Origin: a virus
IMG/VR virus record: IMGVR_UViG_3300045988_176838
Span: 1-32,577 of that record
Length of the DNA stretch: 32,577 bases
Reading direction: 5' to 3' (one strand)
This document shows positions 6,228 through 11,306 of the stretch, piece after piece. The stretch's first letter is position 1. Every line of letters begins with the position of its first letter. The notes under the pieces are model-generated. The model ran no database searches, was not told where the DNA came from, and worked only from the letters and a program-made list of their open reading frames with translations. The position numbers and the translations under genes are program-made.

Positions 6228-6463
6228 TTTTCCCCTTTCTTATACAGTCTTGTTACGTCTATATTTTCTTTACCTAGCAAATCGCGAATTTCGTACATTG
6301 TTAAATCGTAAATGCTATCTTTTGTTATGCTAATAACGTTTTCTAAGTCGATATAATCTTTACCAATTACATGGATCATATCTATATTTTCACATAAGAT
6401 TATTGGGTCAGTAGTTGTAATTTCTTTTTCTTTCCCCTTTTCTAAATATTTTATTCTAGTCAT
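6224..6463 (-). CDS. Hypothetical 79-aa protein.
   Basis: ORF. Confidence 0.35.
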   Translation of the reverse strand: MTRIKYLEKGKEKEITTTDPIILCENIDMIHVIGKDYIDLENVISITKDSIYDLTMYEIRDLLGKENIDVTRLYKKGEK

Positions 6464-8591
6464 TTTGCTTTATAATCCTCTTTCTTTTTTTGTAACACCC
6501 CATACAATATGGAATGTTCTCGTCGACATAATCATAACATATTGGTGTTTCTTTGCCTTCTATGTTCCTTTCTATGCGCCCTATAGCTTGTATTGTTACA
6601 CTTTCATTCTTTTGTGGACTTGCTAGGTGTAACGTATCGAGCGCTGGTATATCAAGTCCCTCTTTTGCTAAAGCGTATGTAGCAATAATAACGCTTGCGT
6701 CATAATTTCTATCTTTTTCTTTTACCTTTCCTACTAATATCGAAGTTTTCACTCCCCTTTCTTCCAACATTTTTGATAACATTTCACACTGCGCTACTCG
6801 ATGGCACAACACAAGCTGACTATGCGGTACACGTTCCACTATGTTATTTACTATTTCTTCATTTCTTTGTGTGTTGTCAGCTAACAAGCTAATCAATTTT
6901 GTATTATTGATAGTTCCATCGAAGTCGGTATAGTCCATAACGTTATATTCTTGACTAAGGAATATCGGTTTATATTCAGCGGTTATTCGCTTATCTTTTA
7001 CCGCTTCTTTAGGAATTTCATAAACAATATCACCAACTAATGCAAATAATGAAGGTATCATTCCATCCGTTCTTGTCAATGTAGCACTCATTCCGAATTT
7101 GTAACGGCAATTTATACTATTGATTACTTTGTAGAATTGCATTGCTTTTGTGGGAGAGCCTACTAAGTGGTGGCAATTATGAACTAAATAGTTATTAGCA
7201 AAATAATTATGATTATCTTCTACTTCAAGATTATAGACAGTACATTTTCTATATTGTTTAGTATCTCCGCATTTTTGAAGTGAAACACTTTCCAACCCAT
7301 AGAATTTAAGAACTCGCTTTTCTTTTTGTCTCTTTCTTGACCTAAGATTGAACGATGGCTGGCACCATCTATTTCTATTGCTATTTTGGCATTCGGTATT
7401 GCTAAATCTATTTTGTAGCAAGGTGGGTAGCCACTTCCTCTTGGCATTTTTGTTGGTATCACGTATTCTGGAATTACACGAATTTGCTTGTCTAATAATG
7501 CTAACTCTAATTTTATTTGTGGTAATGTTTCTCCCGTTCCATTTCCTCCTCTTTCTTTTGGCTTCCAATTCATTCCTTTTAATGTTTTTGAAACTTTTTT
7601 TCTTTTTTGAGGGTCTGACATTGGTTTTTTTTTCTTCATTCGTATTGAAGAAAGTTTGTAATAGCATTCTTGAGAACATGTTATTCTTGTTTTGCTTTTT
7701 ACTTCCTTTCCACACACAACGCAATATTTTGTCATTTTTGTTTATTTCCTCCGCTTTTACCCATCCTCTTTGCGTAAACCAAGGATGATTTGAAGTACAA
7801 TACGTATCGTTTATACACGTTACTTCTCTATCTTGATGTATCATTGTTTTTAAAACTTTTTTCCACTCAATTCTATGTGTGTTCTCGTTGTAGGAAGCGA
7901 CAATATCACCTTCTTTTATATCTTTTATTTGTTTGTTTCCTTTGTTAGTTTTAATAAGTGTTTCCCCTGCAAAACACTCGTCTACTACTACCACTGAAAA
8001 TTCGTTTTTGTATAATTGTGGATCTATTTTGCTCATCGTTTGCACGGTAGCGAATGTTATATCGCTTCCAATGTTTACTGCACCTTCTGTAATCGTTCCG
8101 AAATCGCCCTCGAAGTAGCTTTCGCATCTAGCTTTGCTTTGCTCTAGAAGTTTCTTTGTGTGCGTTAGCCATAACGCCTTACCGCCTAGCTCTTTTATAA
8201 GCTGCAATGCTATATTTGTCTTACCGCTACCGCAAGGAGCTTTTAAAACCCCATTCTTTGCTTTTTTAAGCACTTCTAAGGCTGGTTTTTGATATTCATA
8301 AAGATTTATACATCCGTGCATATGTGAAGCTATAAATGGTGCAAATTGCAAATCTATATCGATATGCTTATCTAGTCCCCATAAATGTCGAATGCAACCA
8401 AACGGAAGTATCAAGTCATTTCCGCTTTTTGCGTAAAGACTTAACTTAGGTTCAATGTTTCTTGAGTAAAGCCCCAGTCGTTGTGCGTTGATATAGTCGG
8501 GATTATCTATAACTAATTCTTTCTTGCAATAGTCTATAACTGCTTGTGTTGGCTGTTTTACACGAATACTATTACTAATAATTAATCGCAT
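6456..8591 (-). CDS. SF2 DExH-box helicase precursor (about 444-aa extein) interrupted by a 267-aa intein in motif II.
   Basis: Motif I APCGSGKT. Motif II VVVDE|C…HN|CHH reconstitutes DECH after intein removal. Helicase motifs follow downstream (SAT-like MSATLT and others). Confidence 0.75.
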   Translation of the reverse strand: MRLIISNSIRVKQPTQAVIDYCKKELVIDNPDYINAQRLGLYSRNIEPKLSLYAKSGNDLILPFGCIRHLWGLDKHIDIDLQFAPFIASHMHGCINLYEYQKPALEVLKKAKNGVLKAPCGSGKTNIALQLIKELGGKALWLTHTKKLLEQSKARCESYFEGDFGTITEGAVNIGSDITFATVQTMSKIDPQLYKNEFSVVVVDECFAGETLIKTNKGNKQIKDIKEGDIVASYNENTHRIEWKKVLKTMIHQDREVTCINDTYCTSNHPWFTQRGWVKAEEINKNDKILRCVWKGSKKQNKNNMFSRMLLQTFFNTNEEKKTNVRPSKKKKSFKNIKRNELEAKRKRRKWNGRNITTNKIRVSIIRQANSCNSRIRDTNKNAKRKWLPTLLQNRFSNTECQNSNRNRWCQPSFNLRSRKRQKEKRVLKFYGLESVSLQKCGDTKQYRKCTVYNLEVEDNHNYFANNYLVHNCHHLVGSPTKAMQFYKVINSINCRYKFGMSATLTRTDGMIPSLFALVGDIVYEIPKEAVKDKRITAEYKPIFLSQEYNVMDYTDFDGTINNTKLISLLADNTQRNEEIVNNIVERVPHSQLVLCHRVAQCEMLSKMLEERGVKTSILVGKVKEKDRNYDASVIIATYALAKEGLDIPALDTLHLASPQKNESVTIQAIGRIERNIEGKETPICYDYVDENIPYCMGCYKKRKRIIKQND
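7176..7976 (-). other. Intein, corresponding to host residues 206-472.
   Basis: Block A CFAGETLI, block B TSNHPWFT, block F VYNLEVEDNHNYFANN and block G LVHN followed by extein Cys. The central roughly 140 residues in the host frame are a low-complexity K/R/N-rich linker. Confidence 0.7.
7220..7735 (-). CDS. Nested free-standing homing-endonuclease-like gene (zinc ribbon plus DUF559/Vsr-like endonuclease domain, 171 aa), encoded out of frame inside the intein.
   Basis: Its own SD GGAGGAAA lies 12 nt upstream of the ATG. It has an N-terminal CVVCGKEV…CSQEC zinc ribbon. The C-terminal region reads GYPPCYKIDLAIPNAKIAIEIDGASH…RDKKKSEFLNSMGWKVFHFKNAEILNNIENVLSIIL, typical of DUF559. Its last roughly 75 nt are dual-coded with the intein C-terminal region LESVSLQKCGDTKQYRKCTVYNLEVE. 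Confidence 0.65.
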   Translation of the reverse strand: MTKYCVVCGKEVKSKTRITCSQECYYKLSSIRMKKKKPMSDPQKRKKVSKTLKGMNWKPKERGGNGTGETLPQIKLELALLDKQIRVIPEYVIPTKMPRGSGYPPCYKIDLAIPNAKIAIEIDGASHRSILGQERDKKKSEFLNSMGWKVFHFKNAEILNNIENVLSIILK

Positions 8592-9001
8592 ATAATTTTC
8601 TCCAATGTTGGCAAGTATTCAACTGCTATACTAGCGTTTTTATATTTTTGTAAAGCTTGCAAAGTCTCAAACGATAGCCAACGCCAATCTTTTGTTACTC
8701 CACTATATATTGCAAAGCCTGTTTGTCTTATCTCAGCAACAGTGTTTGCATACTCGAAGCAACTAGCTTGATTAGGTCGAACGTTAGAGAAAGAGAATAT
8801 ATGCGTACTAGTGTGTTTTGCGTCCATTAAGAACGCTTTATTACGTTTGATAGCTATTACATCGCAAGGCTGCCCATTGGGATTATATGGCGTTAAGAAG
8901 CACCAATAGCCTTTGCTTTTTAGATATTCACACAACTGCTTTTCATAGCTGGTGCCGAGTGATTTATTACACAAGTTCTTTTTCATAAGTATAACTTTCA
9001 T
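8582..9001 (-). CDS. VRR-NUC/Hjc-like PD-(D/E)XK nuclease, a putative Holliday-junction resolvase.
   Basis: The D…D-A-K arrangement (QPCDVIAIKRNKAFLMDAKH) sits in a 139-aa protein adjacent to the replication genes. Confidence 0.5.
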   Translation of the reverse strand: MKVILMKKNLCNKSLGTSYEKQLCEYLKSKGYWCFLTPYNPNGQPCDVIAIKRNKAFLMDAKHTSTHIFSFSNVRPNQASCFEYANTVAEIRQTGFAIYSGVTKDWRWLSFETLQALQKYKNASIAVEYLPTLEKIICD

Positions 9002-11306
9002 CTAATATATCAAGCGTTATGCCTAAATAATAGACCCCCGAAGATAACCGCTTTTTCTCGTAGCGTCTACTCATTTCAGAGCAGAACTGGCGCGGTGTAA
9101 GAATTATCTCTACTTCGTTTTCCTTACACCATTGCTTATATCTTTCGTGCGCTTCCTTGTTAGATATTATTCCTTTTTTTACTTCACATACACAAGCATT
9201 ACAGAATTGCTTTACGCTGTCCATTTCTTCTTTGTATTTAGTATTTTCTTCTTTAATAATTTGTGGTACTCCTAGACCTTGCTTTTGCCACATTATACAA
9301 CCTTTTACTGCCCACCCTAGTATTTGTGGTAATTCTTCTTTTAGCTTTTCGGTAAGATCTTTATCTTCCCTGCCTTCAAAATTAGCTTTAAAAGGTATCA
9401 ATACATTTCTTCGCCATACTGCTTTATTAGCAGCTTCAATTCCAATTTTGTAATTGGTGGCAATCCACAATTTTAATTTTGGCTTGAATTCAAAGTCATT
9501 GCCGTACAGAAACCGAGCTGTTACTGGATCGCCAGCAACTATCTTTTTCATAAGTCCTTCTTTAAATCTACTTTTTTTATCAGGCTCATTCGTTTGTACA
9601 AATCTCGCGCCGCTCATTCTCGCTATATCTGGGTTAGCGTTTCCAGCGCTAACATTAGCCACACTTAGAATGCTTTTAGGTTCAATATTCATGCCATAAT
9701 CGCCTAAAATATCGCGAATAATATCGAAGAATACGCTTTTACCATTACTACCATCGCCATAACATTGGAAATAGACTTGCTCTTTATTTGTGCCAGTCAA
9801 TGAATACCCAACTGCTTTTTGAACATATGTAATGAGTTCTTGGTCTTCTAAGAAGATTTCATTTAGGAACTTTAGCCATTTTTTAGGCTCATGATCAGGG
9901 TCATATTCAATGTGTGTACTTTTACTTATCATTCTTTCTTTATCGTGAGGAAATAGCTTCCCACTTTTTAGGCTGATTATTCCGCTTTCACAATTAAGAG
10001 CGAATGCTTCACGGTCAAAATCTCTATTTTGCTTCGGTACATTAGGCAAGTGCATTGCTTCTTTGAGCATTGCTTCCTTGCCAGCGCTACTTGCTAGGCG
10101 CTTTATATTAGCGGCTTTTGCTTTGCTGTAATATTCATCTTCTATTTCAGCTAACTCAAGCTTCATATCATTGATAAGTTGATCAGCTAATAGCTTTATT
10201 TCTTGTGTACTATCGGTCTTCCAATATTTGCCGTTGTAAATCATCCATTGTTTATTGTCGAAGTTATAGCACACACTAGATCCGAACTTGTCTATAAATG
10301 CTTCCGCATTACCTGTGTCGGTCAAATCGTATTTTTTGTCATAAGCATATTTTCCTGTGCGGACTTCAAATATTTTCTTAGCTTTTTCAGGATCGTATAC
10401 TTCTTTGCAATTCGCTATAGCTTGAGCAATAGTTATATTGCCATAAGTATCAGTTCCTCGCATTTCATTCCACTTATCACGATACAAGTTTGATGAGCGA
10501 AATATTCTGTCCATTTGTTCTGGGTTCTTTCTAGTCCAGAACGCCAGAAGCATGCAGAAAGCCATATCAGCTTCACTTTGGCTATTGTACAAGCCTTGCC
10601 ACTTGCCATAGAACAAACAATTAAACAAGTTGCCGTTCTTGCTATTAACAGCTTTCATAATGATTTCATTATCATTTAGAATAGTTGTTGCGTACATTTT
10701 GTTATTGACGTAAATGTATTCAGCTACTGGATTTGTCGGCTCGACTGGCTCGGCAATTATCTTTTTAGCTATAGGGCTTTGAGTACCACCTAAATATTTA
10801 CTATACAAGTCGGTTATCTCGAATGTTCTTTCTTCTACTGTTGTGCAATTTCCAAGCATATTGCCCGTAACTGTAAAGAAACGCAAGTTATCGTACATTT
10901 CTATATTGCCTTTTCTTCGCCCCCCAGCTGGAAGATGTCCTTTGCATAAAATGTGTATGCCTTTTCCGCTAGGTGTGATCTCTGCATAAGAATTGAGTAC
11001 TGAAATAAATTCATTGAACAACACATTCATAGCATTAGGATCTCTATCGTCGTGGTTGTCAATATCTACTCCGAAGTACCCATCGCCTAAGACAAAGCCT
11101 AGCCCCTCGCATTCGTCAGTTTCTTGTGCGACTGCTAAAGCCTTATCAAAAGTTGACCAGGTTTTGCTATCGTTTACTTTTGCCCCCTTTAGGTTATTAG
11201 GATTTAATGGCATTTTCGAACCATCTATTTTCTTTTTCCACAATATCCAGCGAGGCTCAAGTTTTAATTCGTTTGGTATATTTTCTATATTGATTTTTTG
11301 TTTCAT
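8967..11306 (-). CDS. Bifunctional primase-polymerase (prim-pol N-domain) fused to a P4/D5-type SF3 helicase.
   Basis: The N-terminal prim-pol signature is GLGFVLGDGYFGVDIDNHDDRD. The C-terminal SF3 Walker A is CYGDGSNGKSVFFDII, with downstream P4-type C-terminal motifs. Confidence 0.8.
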   Translation of the reverse strand: MKQKINIENIPNELKLEPRWILWKKKIDGSKMPLNPNNLKGAKVNDSKTWSTFDKALAVAQETDECEGLGFVLGDGYFGVDIDNHDDRDPNAMNVLFNEFISVLNSYAEITPSGKGIHILCKGHLPAGGRRKGNIEMYDNLRFFTVTGNMLGNCTTVEERTFEITDLYSKYLGGTQSPIAKKIIAEPVEPTNPVAEYIYVNNKMYATTILNDNEIIMKAVNSKNGNLFNCLFYGKWQGLYNSQSEADMAFCMLLAFWTRKNPEQMDRIFRSSNLYRDKWNEMRGTDTYGNITIAQAIANCKEVYDPEKAKKIFEVRTGKYAYDKKYDLTDTGNAEAFIDKFGSSVCYNFDNKQWMIYNGKYWKTDSTQEIKLLADQLINDMKLELAEIEDEYYSKAKAANIKRLASSAGKEAMLKEAMHLPNVPKQNRDFDREAFALNCESGIISLKSGKLFPHDKERMISKSTHIEYDPDHEPKKWLKFLNEIFLEDQELITYVQKAVGYSLTGTNKEQVYFQCYGDGSNGKSVFFDIIRDILGDYGMNIEPKSILSVANVSAGNANPDIARMSGARFVQTNEPDKKSRFKEGLMKKIVAGDPVTARFLYGNDFEFKPKLKLWIATNYKIGIEAANKAVWRRNVLIPFKANFEGREDKDLTEKLKEELPQILGWAVKGCIMWQKQGLGVPQIIKEENTKYKEEMDSVKQFCNACVCEVKKGIISNKEAHERYKQWCKENEVEIILTPRQFCSEMSRRYEKKRLSSGVYYLGITLDILDESYTYEKELV

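Follow-up and report, generated by a model that had tools for sequence, protein, structure and literature searches.

Helicase gene and its intein

The virus record IMGVR_UViG_3300045988_176838 of IMG/VR, analyzed here over its positions 1 to 32,577 (the whole stretch of 32,577 nt, hereafter the window), carries on the minus strand a gene for a superfamily 2 (SF2) helicase that is interrupted by an intein, and within the intein-coding region lies a second gene, for a putative homing endonuclease, in another frame of the same strand. The helicase–intein frame is called the host frame below. Its features, with the evidence in parentheses (ORF, open reading frame; aa, amino acids; AF2, AlphaFold2 model; pLDDT, predicted local distance difference test score; dN/dS, ratio of nonsynonymous to synonymous substitution rates), are as follows.

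6456..8591, minus strand: helicase precursor ORF (SF2 helicase plus intein), 711 aa, one uninterrupted frame (ORF listing, Pfam)
7977..8591, minus strand: N-extein, aa 1–205, ending in VVVDE of motif II/Walker B (AF2 pLDDT 80–95; dN/dS 0.05)
7176..7976, minus strand: intein, 267 aa, aa 206–472 (Pfam Intein_splicing/PT-HINT; the 801 nt missing from the empty allele L010)
7707..7976, minus strand: folded N-terminal half of the intein, aa 206–295 (AF2 β-strands, pLDDT about 70–80; dN/dS 0.11)
7323..7706, minus strand: host-frame "linker", aa 296–423, which is the endonuclease gene read out of frame (pLDDT 24–42; composition)
7176..7322, minus strand: folded C-terminal part of the intein, aa 424–472 (AF2 strands 425–432, 436–440, 450–457 and 462–471; aligns with the mini-intein of L015)
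6456..7175, minus strand: C-extein, aa 473–711, beginning CHHLVGSP (Helicase_C)

The intein borders read VVVDE|CFAGETLI...NNYLVHN|CHHLVGSP, the point of interruption being DE|CHH, and the class-1 residue set is complete, comprising Cys1 (C206), TSNH in block B, VYNLEVEDNHNY in block F, LVHN in block G, and then the +1 Cys, with the C-terminal junction reading VYNLEVEDNHNYFANNYLVHN|C473. These signature columns are at least 90% conserved across 54 relatives. In the 711-aa protein, Pfam recognizes ResIII (5e-19; ResIII/DEAD at aa 95–206) and Helicase_C (aa 585–675), with Intein_splicing and PT-HINT in between (PF14890 Intein_splicing, 37.4 bits against a cutoff of 35.8; PF07591, 44.5 bits against 27.7), and PHROGs matches the ORF to DNA helicase families. 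An initial reading of the letters alone, made without database searches (the sequence-only reading), had placed a 267-aa intein with clear Hint blocks exactly in the DExH box of an SF2 helicase; the borders, the Pfam matches above cutoff, the signature residues, and the empty allele described below all bear this out. At least 76 near-identical 711-aa proteins fall in the same cluster, and a near-identical NCBI entry, DAO33218.1, is mislabelled "Type I site specific restriction modification protein".

In the AF2 model of the precursor (72-sequence alignment), both helicase lobes reach pLDDT 80–95 and the intein segments 211–295 and 424–472 are rich in β-structure, while the residues between them, 296–423, stay at 24–42. 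No Pfam domain is found in these 128 host-frame residues, among which there are 38 Lys or Arg, 21 Asn, and only 6 Asp or Glu; they are basic and unconserved and are predicted to be disordered. The center of the intein thus contains no in-frame endonuclease domain, as the sequence-only reading had noticed.

A nested gene for an EDxHD/Vsr-like endonuclease

The same nucleotides contain, 856 nt into the host ORF and hence in its +1 frame, a separate ORF of 171 aa, found exactly where the initial reading had put it. Its features, together with the stretches in which both frames encode folded protein, are listed below.

7220..7735, minus strand: nested gene, 171 aa, with a zinc ribbon, an RM..NPM/RGGNG region, and an EDxHD (DUF559, Vsr-like) nuclease domain (Pfam, alignment, Foldseek)
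7748..7752, minus strand: GGAGG, a Shine-Dalgarno (SD)-like core in the intein codons A-E-E, 12 nt before the ATG (sequence; identical in all five close relatives)
7664..7723, minus strand: zinc-ribbon cysteines C5, C8, C20, and C24 (sequence, alignment)
7328..7375, minus strand: catalytic E..D...H........D, reading EIDGASH...D (invariant in the alignment; EDxHD motif as in PMC3239194)
7707..7735, minus strand: 5' dual-coded stretch of about 30 nt, endonuclease start and first CxxC over DKILRCV, the last strand of the N-intein (structure models)
7220..7322, minus strand: 3' dual-coded stretch of about 100 nt, C-terminal strand and helices of the endonuclease (aa 139–171) over C-terminal strands of the intein (aa 424–457) (structure models)

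The zinc ribbon and DUF559/Vsr-type domain claimed for this ORF are both upheld. Pfam detects DUF559 (PF04480) at 1.6e-13 (50.9 bits, cutoff 20.6), PHROGs returns families labelled HNH/homing endonuclease, and when eight diverse nested proteins are aligned, the residues E121, D123, H127, and D136 never vary, nor do C5, C20, C24, or the motifs RM..NPM and RGGNG, C8 being absent in P0002 alone. The AF2 model is confident for residues 70–171 (pLDDT 74–90 in the C-terminal domain), and its best Foldseek match in the PDB is 3r3p, the catalytic domain of I-Bth0305I (E 9e-5, TM 0.73), followed by 3hrl, a DUF559 protein; the sequence similarity to I-Bth0305I is marginal (E 0.89). Pfam (E ≤ 1) detected no NUMOD-type DNA-binding repeats in the nested protein, which has the Cys4 zinc ribbon and the RM..NPM/RGGNG segment there instead, and the missing repeats are no bar to membership of the EDxHD catalytic family because the N-terminal region is variable in that family. 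By its residues and predicted fold, the nested protein is a member of the EDxHD/Vsr-like (I-Bth0305I-type) family. The initial view that the arrangement could not be placed in a described family therefore no longer holds, since the endonuclease has 3r3p as its top fold match and the layout joins the published "non-canonical" inteins considered below.

In the endonuclease frame, two stop codons precede the ATG, at two and seven codons, and the SD sequence that had been read within the intein codons is present, albeit at a long spacing. Family-wide, with the start codons of distant nested genes assigned crudely, 33% of nested starts have an SD-like core versus 10% in the control, a threefold enrichment, and elsewhere the core is written in the codons D-E-V or G-D. 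The start region also bears on the idea that the endonuclease is made as a fusion of N-extein, N-terminal intein half (IntN), and endonuclease through +1 ribosomal frameshifting, for example on C-AAA-AAT-G just before the ATG. At AAC AAA AAT G, tRNA-Lys could indeed re-pair from AAA to AAA one base downstream, and two database proteins, P0173 (496 aa) and P0265 (557 aa), have ResIII, then a Hint N-terminal part or zinc finger, then DUF559 in a single frame ending at the endonuclease stop. However, the TAA two codons before the ATG leaves a shift window of only two codons, and in five GenBank phage loci (L001–L005) the A-run is not conserved whereas the ATG and an upstream (G)AGG are. Such a fusion would also waste helicase precursor, and the two in-frame proteins, found among 150 matches, could be natural IntN–endonuclease fusions, +1 layouts altered by a single indel, or artefacts of sequencing. 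We regard production by frameshifting as very improbable.

The host frame is kept open by synonymous codon choice

The host frame is free of stop codons over all 172 codons of the nested ORF, as against 23 stops in the third sense frame. With the endonuclease protein held fixed, the expected number of host-frame stops averages 17.3 under the codon usage of the genome and 9.1 when the gene's own codons are permuted, and the probability of an open host frame is at most 1e-5 (synonymous-codon resampling, 100,000 trials), which agrees with the initial judgment that a chance open frame is very unlikely. In the five GenBank phages L001–L005 the host frame is likewise open where 4.7–19 stops are expected (P 0–0.002).

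A stop arises in the host frame only if an endonuclease codon ending in T is followed by one starting with AA, AG, or GA. In 59 nested genes, none of the 761 pyrimidine-ending codons that stand before AA, AG, or GA ends in T, compared with 60% T elsewhere in the same genes, and ordinary genes of the window have 70% T in both codon contexts. Because each NNT codon has a synonymous NNC, the +1 host frame can stay open at no cost to the endonuclease protein, and the helicase frame is kept open solely through synonymous T-to-C choices at endonuclease third positions. In the other register, a Met codon followed by an A-initial codon forces TGA, and the nested proteins average 2.6 such unavoidable stops. 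The +1 register is thus the sole one that purely synonymous changes in the nested gene can open, which, together with common descent, would explain why +1 is universal among the relatives examined.

Selection on the two frames

Values of dN/dS were calculated by the Nei-Gojobori method from a gapless alignment of the window gene with the metagenomic relatives L008, L009, L011, and L012 (91–96% protein identity). They are 0.05 for both exteins and 0.11 for the N-intein, and over the 172-codon overlap they are 0.24 in the endonuclease frame, 0.77 in the host frame, and 0.68 in the third-frame control, the host frame being indistinguishable from that control. Variable sites number 24, 19, and 40 at the first, second, and third endonuclease codon positions, and their density per nucleotide is 0.067 at the 5' dual-coded end, 0.127 at the 3' dual-coded end, and 0.185 in the core. 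In 1,711 pairs of distant members compared over the same nucleotides, the endonuclease frame gives an identity of 0.47, and the host and third frames 0.25 each; since the pairs were aligned in the endonuclease frame, the fair comparison is that between host and third frame.

The low dN/dS of the endonuclease frame, combined with a host frame that behaves like the control, implies that the intein center is selected only for the absence of stops. To judge from these alignments, selection is asymmetric, acting on the endonuclease frame for its sequence and on the central 128 host codons only for openness, and true dual coding is confined to the two ends of the nested gene. The earlier proposal of selection on both frames accordingly stands for the endonuclease frame, which is conserved in homologues well above the control, and has to be narrowed for the central host frame to its openness. 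The dual coding that had been read in the last 75 nt is present, extending over about 100 nt and accompanied by about 30 nt at the 5' end.

Allelic states of the element

An empty allele of the same helicase (L010/P0011; 444 aa, syntenic, 96% identical) lacks exactly the 801 nt and reads VVVIDE|CHHLVGSP, its DNA at the insertion site being ...GTAGTAATCGATGAA|TGCCATCATTTAGTAGG.... It differs from the intein-bearing L008 at 8 positions in the first 500 extein nt, whereas intein-bearing alleles are mutually about 8% apart; this near-identity points to a recent gain or loss of the intein. Synonymous differences between the window and the empty allele cluster around the junction (18% vs 8%); this was considered as a mark of cleavage resistance and rejected, as the intein-bearing L008 shares the empty-allele flanks.

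At the same site, L015 has a mini-intein of 131 aa without a nested ORF, and L116 (positions 730-2556) has a 166-aa intein that retains the last 67 endonuclease codons, namely the catalytic half without a start, including the stretch shared with the C-terminal intein half (IntC); L116 resembles a deletion intermediate on the way from the full form to the mini form. The intein-less and endonuclease-less alleles that the sequence-only reading had suggested seeking in relatives are therefore found. In L016, L096, and L097 the endonuclease frame is disrupted and the helicase–intein frame open. Complete +1 endonuclease genes are also present in L013 and L117, whose helicases are 47% and 38% identical to that of the window, and more distant helicase homologues (438–451 aa) are mostly intein-free.

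True fractured genes occur among the relatives as well, in SNF2-like helicases interrupted at DEAHS|C (L041:2501-4987, L042:2555-4984, and L049:194-2452). In these, the N-terminal half with IntN runs to a stop, a +1 endonuclease ORF of 257–263 codons (stop to stop) follows, and a Met-initiated IntC with the C-terminal half then takes up the first frame again, sharing about 135 nt with the 3' end of the endonuclease ORF. Together with the Vsr-like case described by Dassa et al. 2009 (PMC2677866), these loci, which have the same frame relationships as the window, would be the precedent for reading the latter as a functional fractured gene, in which the helicase halves would be synthesized apart and joined in trans and the host frame would be open only incidentally. 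In the window, however, the host frame has neither a stop nor an internal Met that would allow a split product, there being no Met from aa 318 to the end of the intein, and its openness, highly non-random here and in about 100 loci, makes sense only if read-through is required. Trans-splicing is therefore scarcely credible for the window, which represents the unbroken counterpart of the fractured genes of Dassa et al., in line with the initial impression of a contiguous variant of that layout. Of the nearest relatives sampled, 93 have the contiguous form and 3 the fractured one.

Free-standing homologous endonuclease genes were observed in L055 (3355-3996) and L063 (1513-2148), directly upstream of intein-less SF2 helicase genes and overlapping their starts; they may represent a precursor state of the "intronless homing" kind.

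Recurrence across phages

In a tblastn search of GenBank phages, the 171-aa protein matched 41 records at 36–40% identity, and each of the 40 matches listed sits within one annotated coding sequence, named "helicase" except in the Nahant Vibrio phages, where the name is "coil containing protein". In all five of the GenBank loci analyzed (L001–L005: Pseudomonas phage MR14, Vibrio phages 1.194.O, 159E43-1b, and CP-T1, and Corynebacterium phage phi673), nested ORFs of 203–260 aa lie at +1 in an open host frame. The corresponding entries (MT104474, MR14 gp44; NC_019457, CP-T1 gp10; NC_042354, phi673 gp43; MG592563, NVP1194O_69; OZ196825) are annotated as single ORFs of 836–993 aa labelled "putative helicase", "DNA helicase", or "coil containing protein", and neither the intein nor the nested endonuclease is annotated in these five records. 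A megablast search of GenBank phages with the window gene found no match.

A scan of IMG/VR with an endonuclease alignment confirmed at least 396 relatives, the best 80 loci of which were analyzed, and GTDB genomes were scanned with a four-sequence endonuclease alignment; the resulting survey thus consists of the 80 IMG/VR loci and 20 GTDB loci (metagenome-assembled genomes, MAGs) most similar to the query and is not an unbiased census. Scans of IMG/VR with the single protein and of GTDB with the empty-allele helicase yielded no relatives. The gene is nested at +1 in one long ORF in 75 of the 80 IMG/VR loci and in 18 of the 20 GTDB loci, the latter from MAGs of many phyla, and at +2 in none of either set; in none of the 100 loci is it in frame on both sides, and no in-frame intein–endonuclease–intein fusion occurs among the 150 best protein representatives. 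The junctions are nearly all of the form hhhhDE|CF...VHN|CH(H/R/K) in the 38 loci with both borders detectable by motif, and the common DNA context of the insertion site is nTnnTnnTnGAYGAR|TGYCAYCA. Among 54 non-redundant host ORFs, Intein_splicing was detected in 51, ResIII in 48, and Helicase_C in 47.

This recurrence also settles whether two compensating indels from assembly or sequencing could mask an ordinary in-frame endonuclease intein, the outcome named at the outset as one that would undo the proposal. Homopolymer runs in the region are all that speaks for such an artefact, whereas five independent assemblies at 91–96% identity align without gaps and keep both frames, the isolate phage genomes (CP-T1, MR14, phi673, and Vibrio phages) share the +1 offset with the close metagenomic relatives and about 100 distant loci, none of which is in frame on both sides, and no pair of indels could undo the sharing of nucleotides between block F of the intein and the C-terminus of the endonuclease. 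The artefact is thus refuted by the comparative data, and we give it next to no weight.

One composite, in L034:2792-4873 (IMG/VR UViG_3300045988_145459), lies inside a DnaX-type clamp loader (AAA, DNA_pol3_delta2, DNAX lid) at IIDE|CHSL, showing that the element is not limited to SF2 helicases; it apparently tracks the sequence that encodes the Walker-B "DE|xH". In the host helicases of L017:1820-5215, L080:1667-5302, and L069:1910-6421, two inteins were observed, one near the N-terminus, which is a Hom_end_hint intein with an in-frame LAGLIDADG/Hom_end domain detected in L017 and L080, and one at the DExH site with the +1 Vsr-like gene.

Proposed explanation and its limits

We consider it probable that the locus is a composite selfish element, residing in the DE|CH (motif II/Walker B) codons of a phage replication helicase, in which a homing-endonuclease gene is overprinted at +1 on a class-1 intein. 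As the helicase frame is continuous through the endonuclease gene, one 711-aa precursor can be made, in which the predicted HINT halves (aa 206–295 and 424–472) are separated by 128 residues of out-of-frame endonuclease reading. The intein would fold around this disordered loop and splice in cis, yielding the 444-aa helicase. The 171-aa endonuclease would be translated independently, at a low level, from the internal ATG with its SD GGAGG, and would act as a dimer by analogy with I-Bth0305I, cutting intein-less helicase alleles near GAYGAR|TGYCAY during co-infection; repair would then copy the intein and the endonuclease gene together, that is, accomplish homing. Splicing activity is suggested by the conserved residues, the selection for an open frame, and the presumed essentiality of the helicase, and mobility by the patchy presence and absence of the element among near-identical exteins. 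We speculate that the free dimeric enzyme and the 100-nt overlap with IntC may account for the lack of an in-frame fusion.

Several points weigh against this explanation. Splicing would, as we assume, have to span a 128-residue loop with a charge of +32. The model of the endonuclease is of low confidence for residues 1–68, because its alignment comprises 3 sequences. As to its translation, the SD–ATG spacing of 12 nt is longer than optimal, and a canonical SD core stands at the presumed start in only one third of the family; near the nested start, a search for an internal promoter or terminator gave nothing beyond shuffled expectation, and the fold of an SD-masking RNA hairpin sought there was not significant (z = −1.56). 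The rule that only +1 occurs could derive entirely from common ancestry of the composite. Finally, the endonuclease dN/dS of 0.24 is five times the extein value, and in some close relatives the gene is damaged: L011 (3001-5136) has a premature stop (W148stop) with the 711-aa host frame intact, and L006 (62-577) and L007 (49-564) have lost a zinc ligand (C5F) with the helicase–intein frame open, so that the window copy, too, could be on its way to decay.

These last observations, the relaxation of the endonuclease frame relative to the exteins, the loss of the 5' two-thirds of the gene in L116, and the broken endonuclease frames in L016, L096, and L097, are what would be expected if the intein were effectively a mini-intein and the nested ORF of the window a decaying, non-functional endonuclease gene, persisting because stop-creating or frame-breaking changes would kill the helicase. 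The window copy, however, is full length, with all invariant catalytic and zinc residues and a conserved SD and ATG; its dN/dS is well under the neutral controls (0.68–0.77), with substitutions accumulating at endonuclease third positions; and the 3' overlap accounts for the keeping of only about 100 nt, not of 516 nt. We therefore judge decay of the window copy to be unlikely, though less so than the other alternatives, and retain the composite homing element as the preferred explanation.

Going beyond this locus, we lean slightly toward a broader proposal: that same-strand +1 overprinting, rather than fracture, is the predominant stable outcome when free-standing EDxHD/Vsr-like genes colonize inteins, with a register dictated by the genetic code through silent T-to-C changes. 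It would make the composite a widespread, largely unannotated mobile element that adds more than 100 "wrong-frame" residues to its precursors and, through a shared hhhhDE|CH Walker-B coding sequence, moves among P-loop ATPases that are unrelated to one another, including various SF2 helicases and at least one clamp loader of the DnaX type.

Comparison with known systems

The element is worth comparing with the fractured genes of Dassa et al. (PMC2677866), in which split inteins flank free-standing Vsr-like or GIY-YIG endonuclease genes, and whose authors stated that Vsr-like domains were not known in inteins. Both are found in phage genes of DNA metabolism, both have a free-standing Vsr-like gene with its own start at the usual position of the intein's endonuclease domain, and in both the endonuclease 3' end overlaps the C-intein coding region, by 6–69 bp for the Vsr-like cases there and by about 100 nt here. 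In clear distinction, the host frame of the window is unbroken, forming one 711-aa ORF with a contiguous intein where fractured genes consist of two ORFs, and an SF2 helicase interrupted at DExH is not among the eight host types of that paper.

Contiguous inteins with an endonuclease gene in another frame or strand have been reported as well. Gosselin, Arsenault & Gogarten (bioRxiv 10.1101/2025.01.02.630785) found actinophage inteins that contain LAGLIDADG or VSR-like genes in antisense orientation, or EndoVII-like genes in frame 3, the hosts being DNA polymerase, minor capsid, terminase, and thymidylate synthase, and remarked that elsewhere the VSR-like genes had been seen only alongside split inteins; Phillips et al. 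(bioRxiv 10.64898/2026.09.14.751524) described a cyanobacterial dnaX intein with LAGLIDADG in the +2 ORF and the same dN/dS asymmetry; the latter preprint credits Gorbalenya 1998 for the idea. These non-canonical inteins and that of the window have in common a contiguous intein, a central in-frame region without a recognizable fold, an overlapping endonuclease ORF, and a dN/dS that is low in the endonuclease frame and raised in the host frame. They differ in that the gene described here is on the same strand, at +1, and EDxHD/Vsr-like, whereas in the actinophage survey VSR-like genes are only antisense and helicase hosts are absent; the abundance across phage and host groups, the strict +1 rule, and the codon signature are not described there either.

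I-Bth0305I (PMC3239194; PDB 3r3p), a homodimer with a footprint of about 60 bp, shares with the nested protein the C-terminal Vsr-like nuclease domain with E, D, H, and D, an N-terminal DNA-binding region, and a phage-borne existence tied to a self-splicing element. Its own element, however, is a group I intron in recA, and it carries two NUMOD2/HTH repeats, in place of which the nested protein, known here from sequence and model, has its Cys4 zinc ribbon and RM..NPM/RGGNG. Canonical LAGLIDADG/HNH inteins resemble the element in their HINT splicing blocks, in their insertion into a conserved catalytic motif of an essential enzyme, and in a presumed homing cycle with empty, full, decaying, and mini states, but in the window the endonuclease lies outside the intein polypeptide, which carries 128 "wrong-frame" residues.

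Earlier publications thus already cover both inteins whose endonuclease is encoded in a different frame or strand and fractured genes that contain Vsr-like endonucleases. In literature coverage that was incomplete and had most subscription journals outside it, no description was found of a helicase DExH intein containing a Vsr-like gene at +1 on the same strand; the abundance, the strict register, and its codon-level explanation appear to be new. The element supplies the unbroken counterpart that joins mini-inteins, fractured genes, and endonuclease-bearing inteins in the model of Dassa et al., and a single helicase lineage displays its empty, mini, full, 5'-deleted, and stop-mutated stages. 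It also shows cleanly, in nature, how overprinting can leave one frame under selection solely for the absence of stops, its signature being 0 of 761 codons ending in T at the positions at risk. Since such elements are annotated as single coding sequences, censuses of phage inteins and homing endonucleases based on called genes could miss them. If both behave as their sequences suggest, inteins able to splice over such a lengthy, disordered, and highly basic loop, along with a compact endonuclease of 171 aa that would target the DExH-box codons, could serve protein engineering and as new nuclease scaffolds.

Surroundings of the helicase gene

Opposite the nested gene, an antisense ORF of 146 codons (7348-7788, plus strand) was considered and set aside as probably a by-product of composition, without supporting evidence: the sense strand is 63% purine, which makes stops rare on the complement, and the three antisense frames contain 3–16 stops, with 8–14 in the antisense frames other than that of this ORF. 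The helicase belongs to a replication module (8582-11306, minus strand), in which an ORF of 139 aa overlaps the helicase start by 10 nt and is preceded upstream by a 779-aa primase-polymerase/D5-type protein and a DUF669 protein. The gene at the position of the 139-aa ORF in L015 and L117 is RecU/Hjc-like, and the contigs of the relatives, 33–37 kb long, are presumably entire phage genomes.

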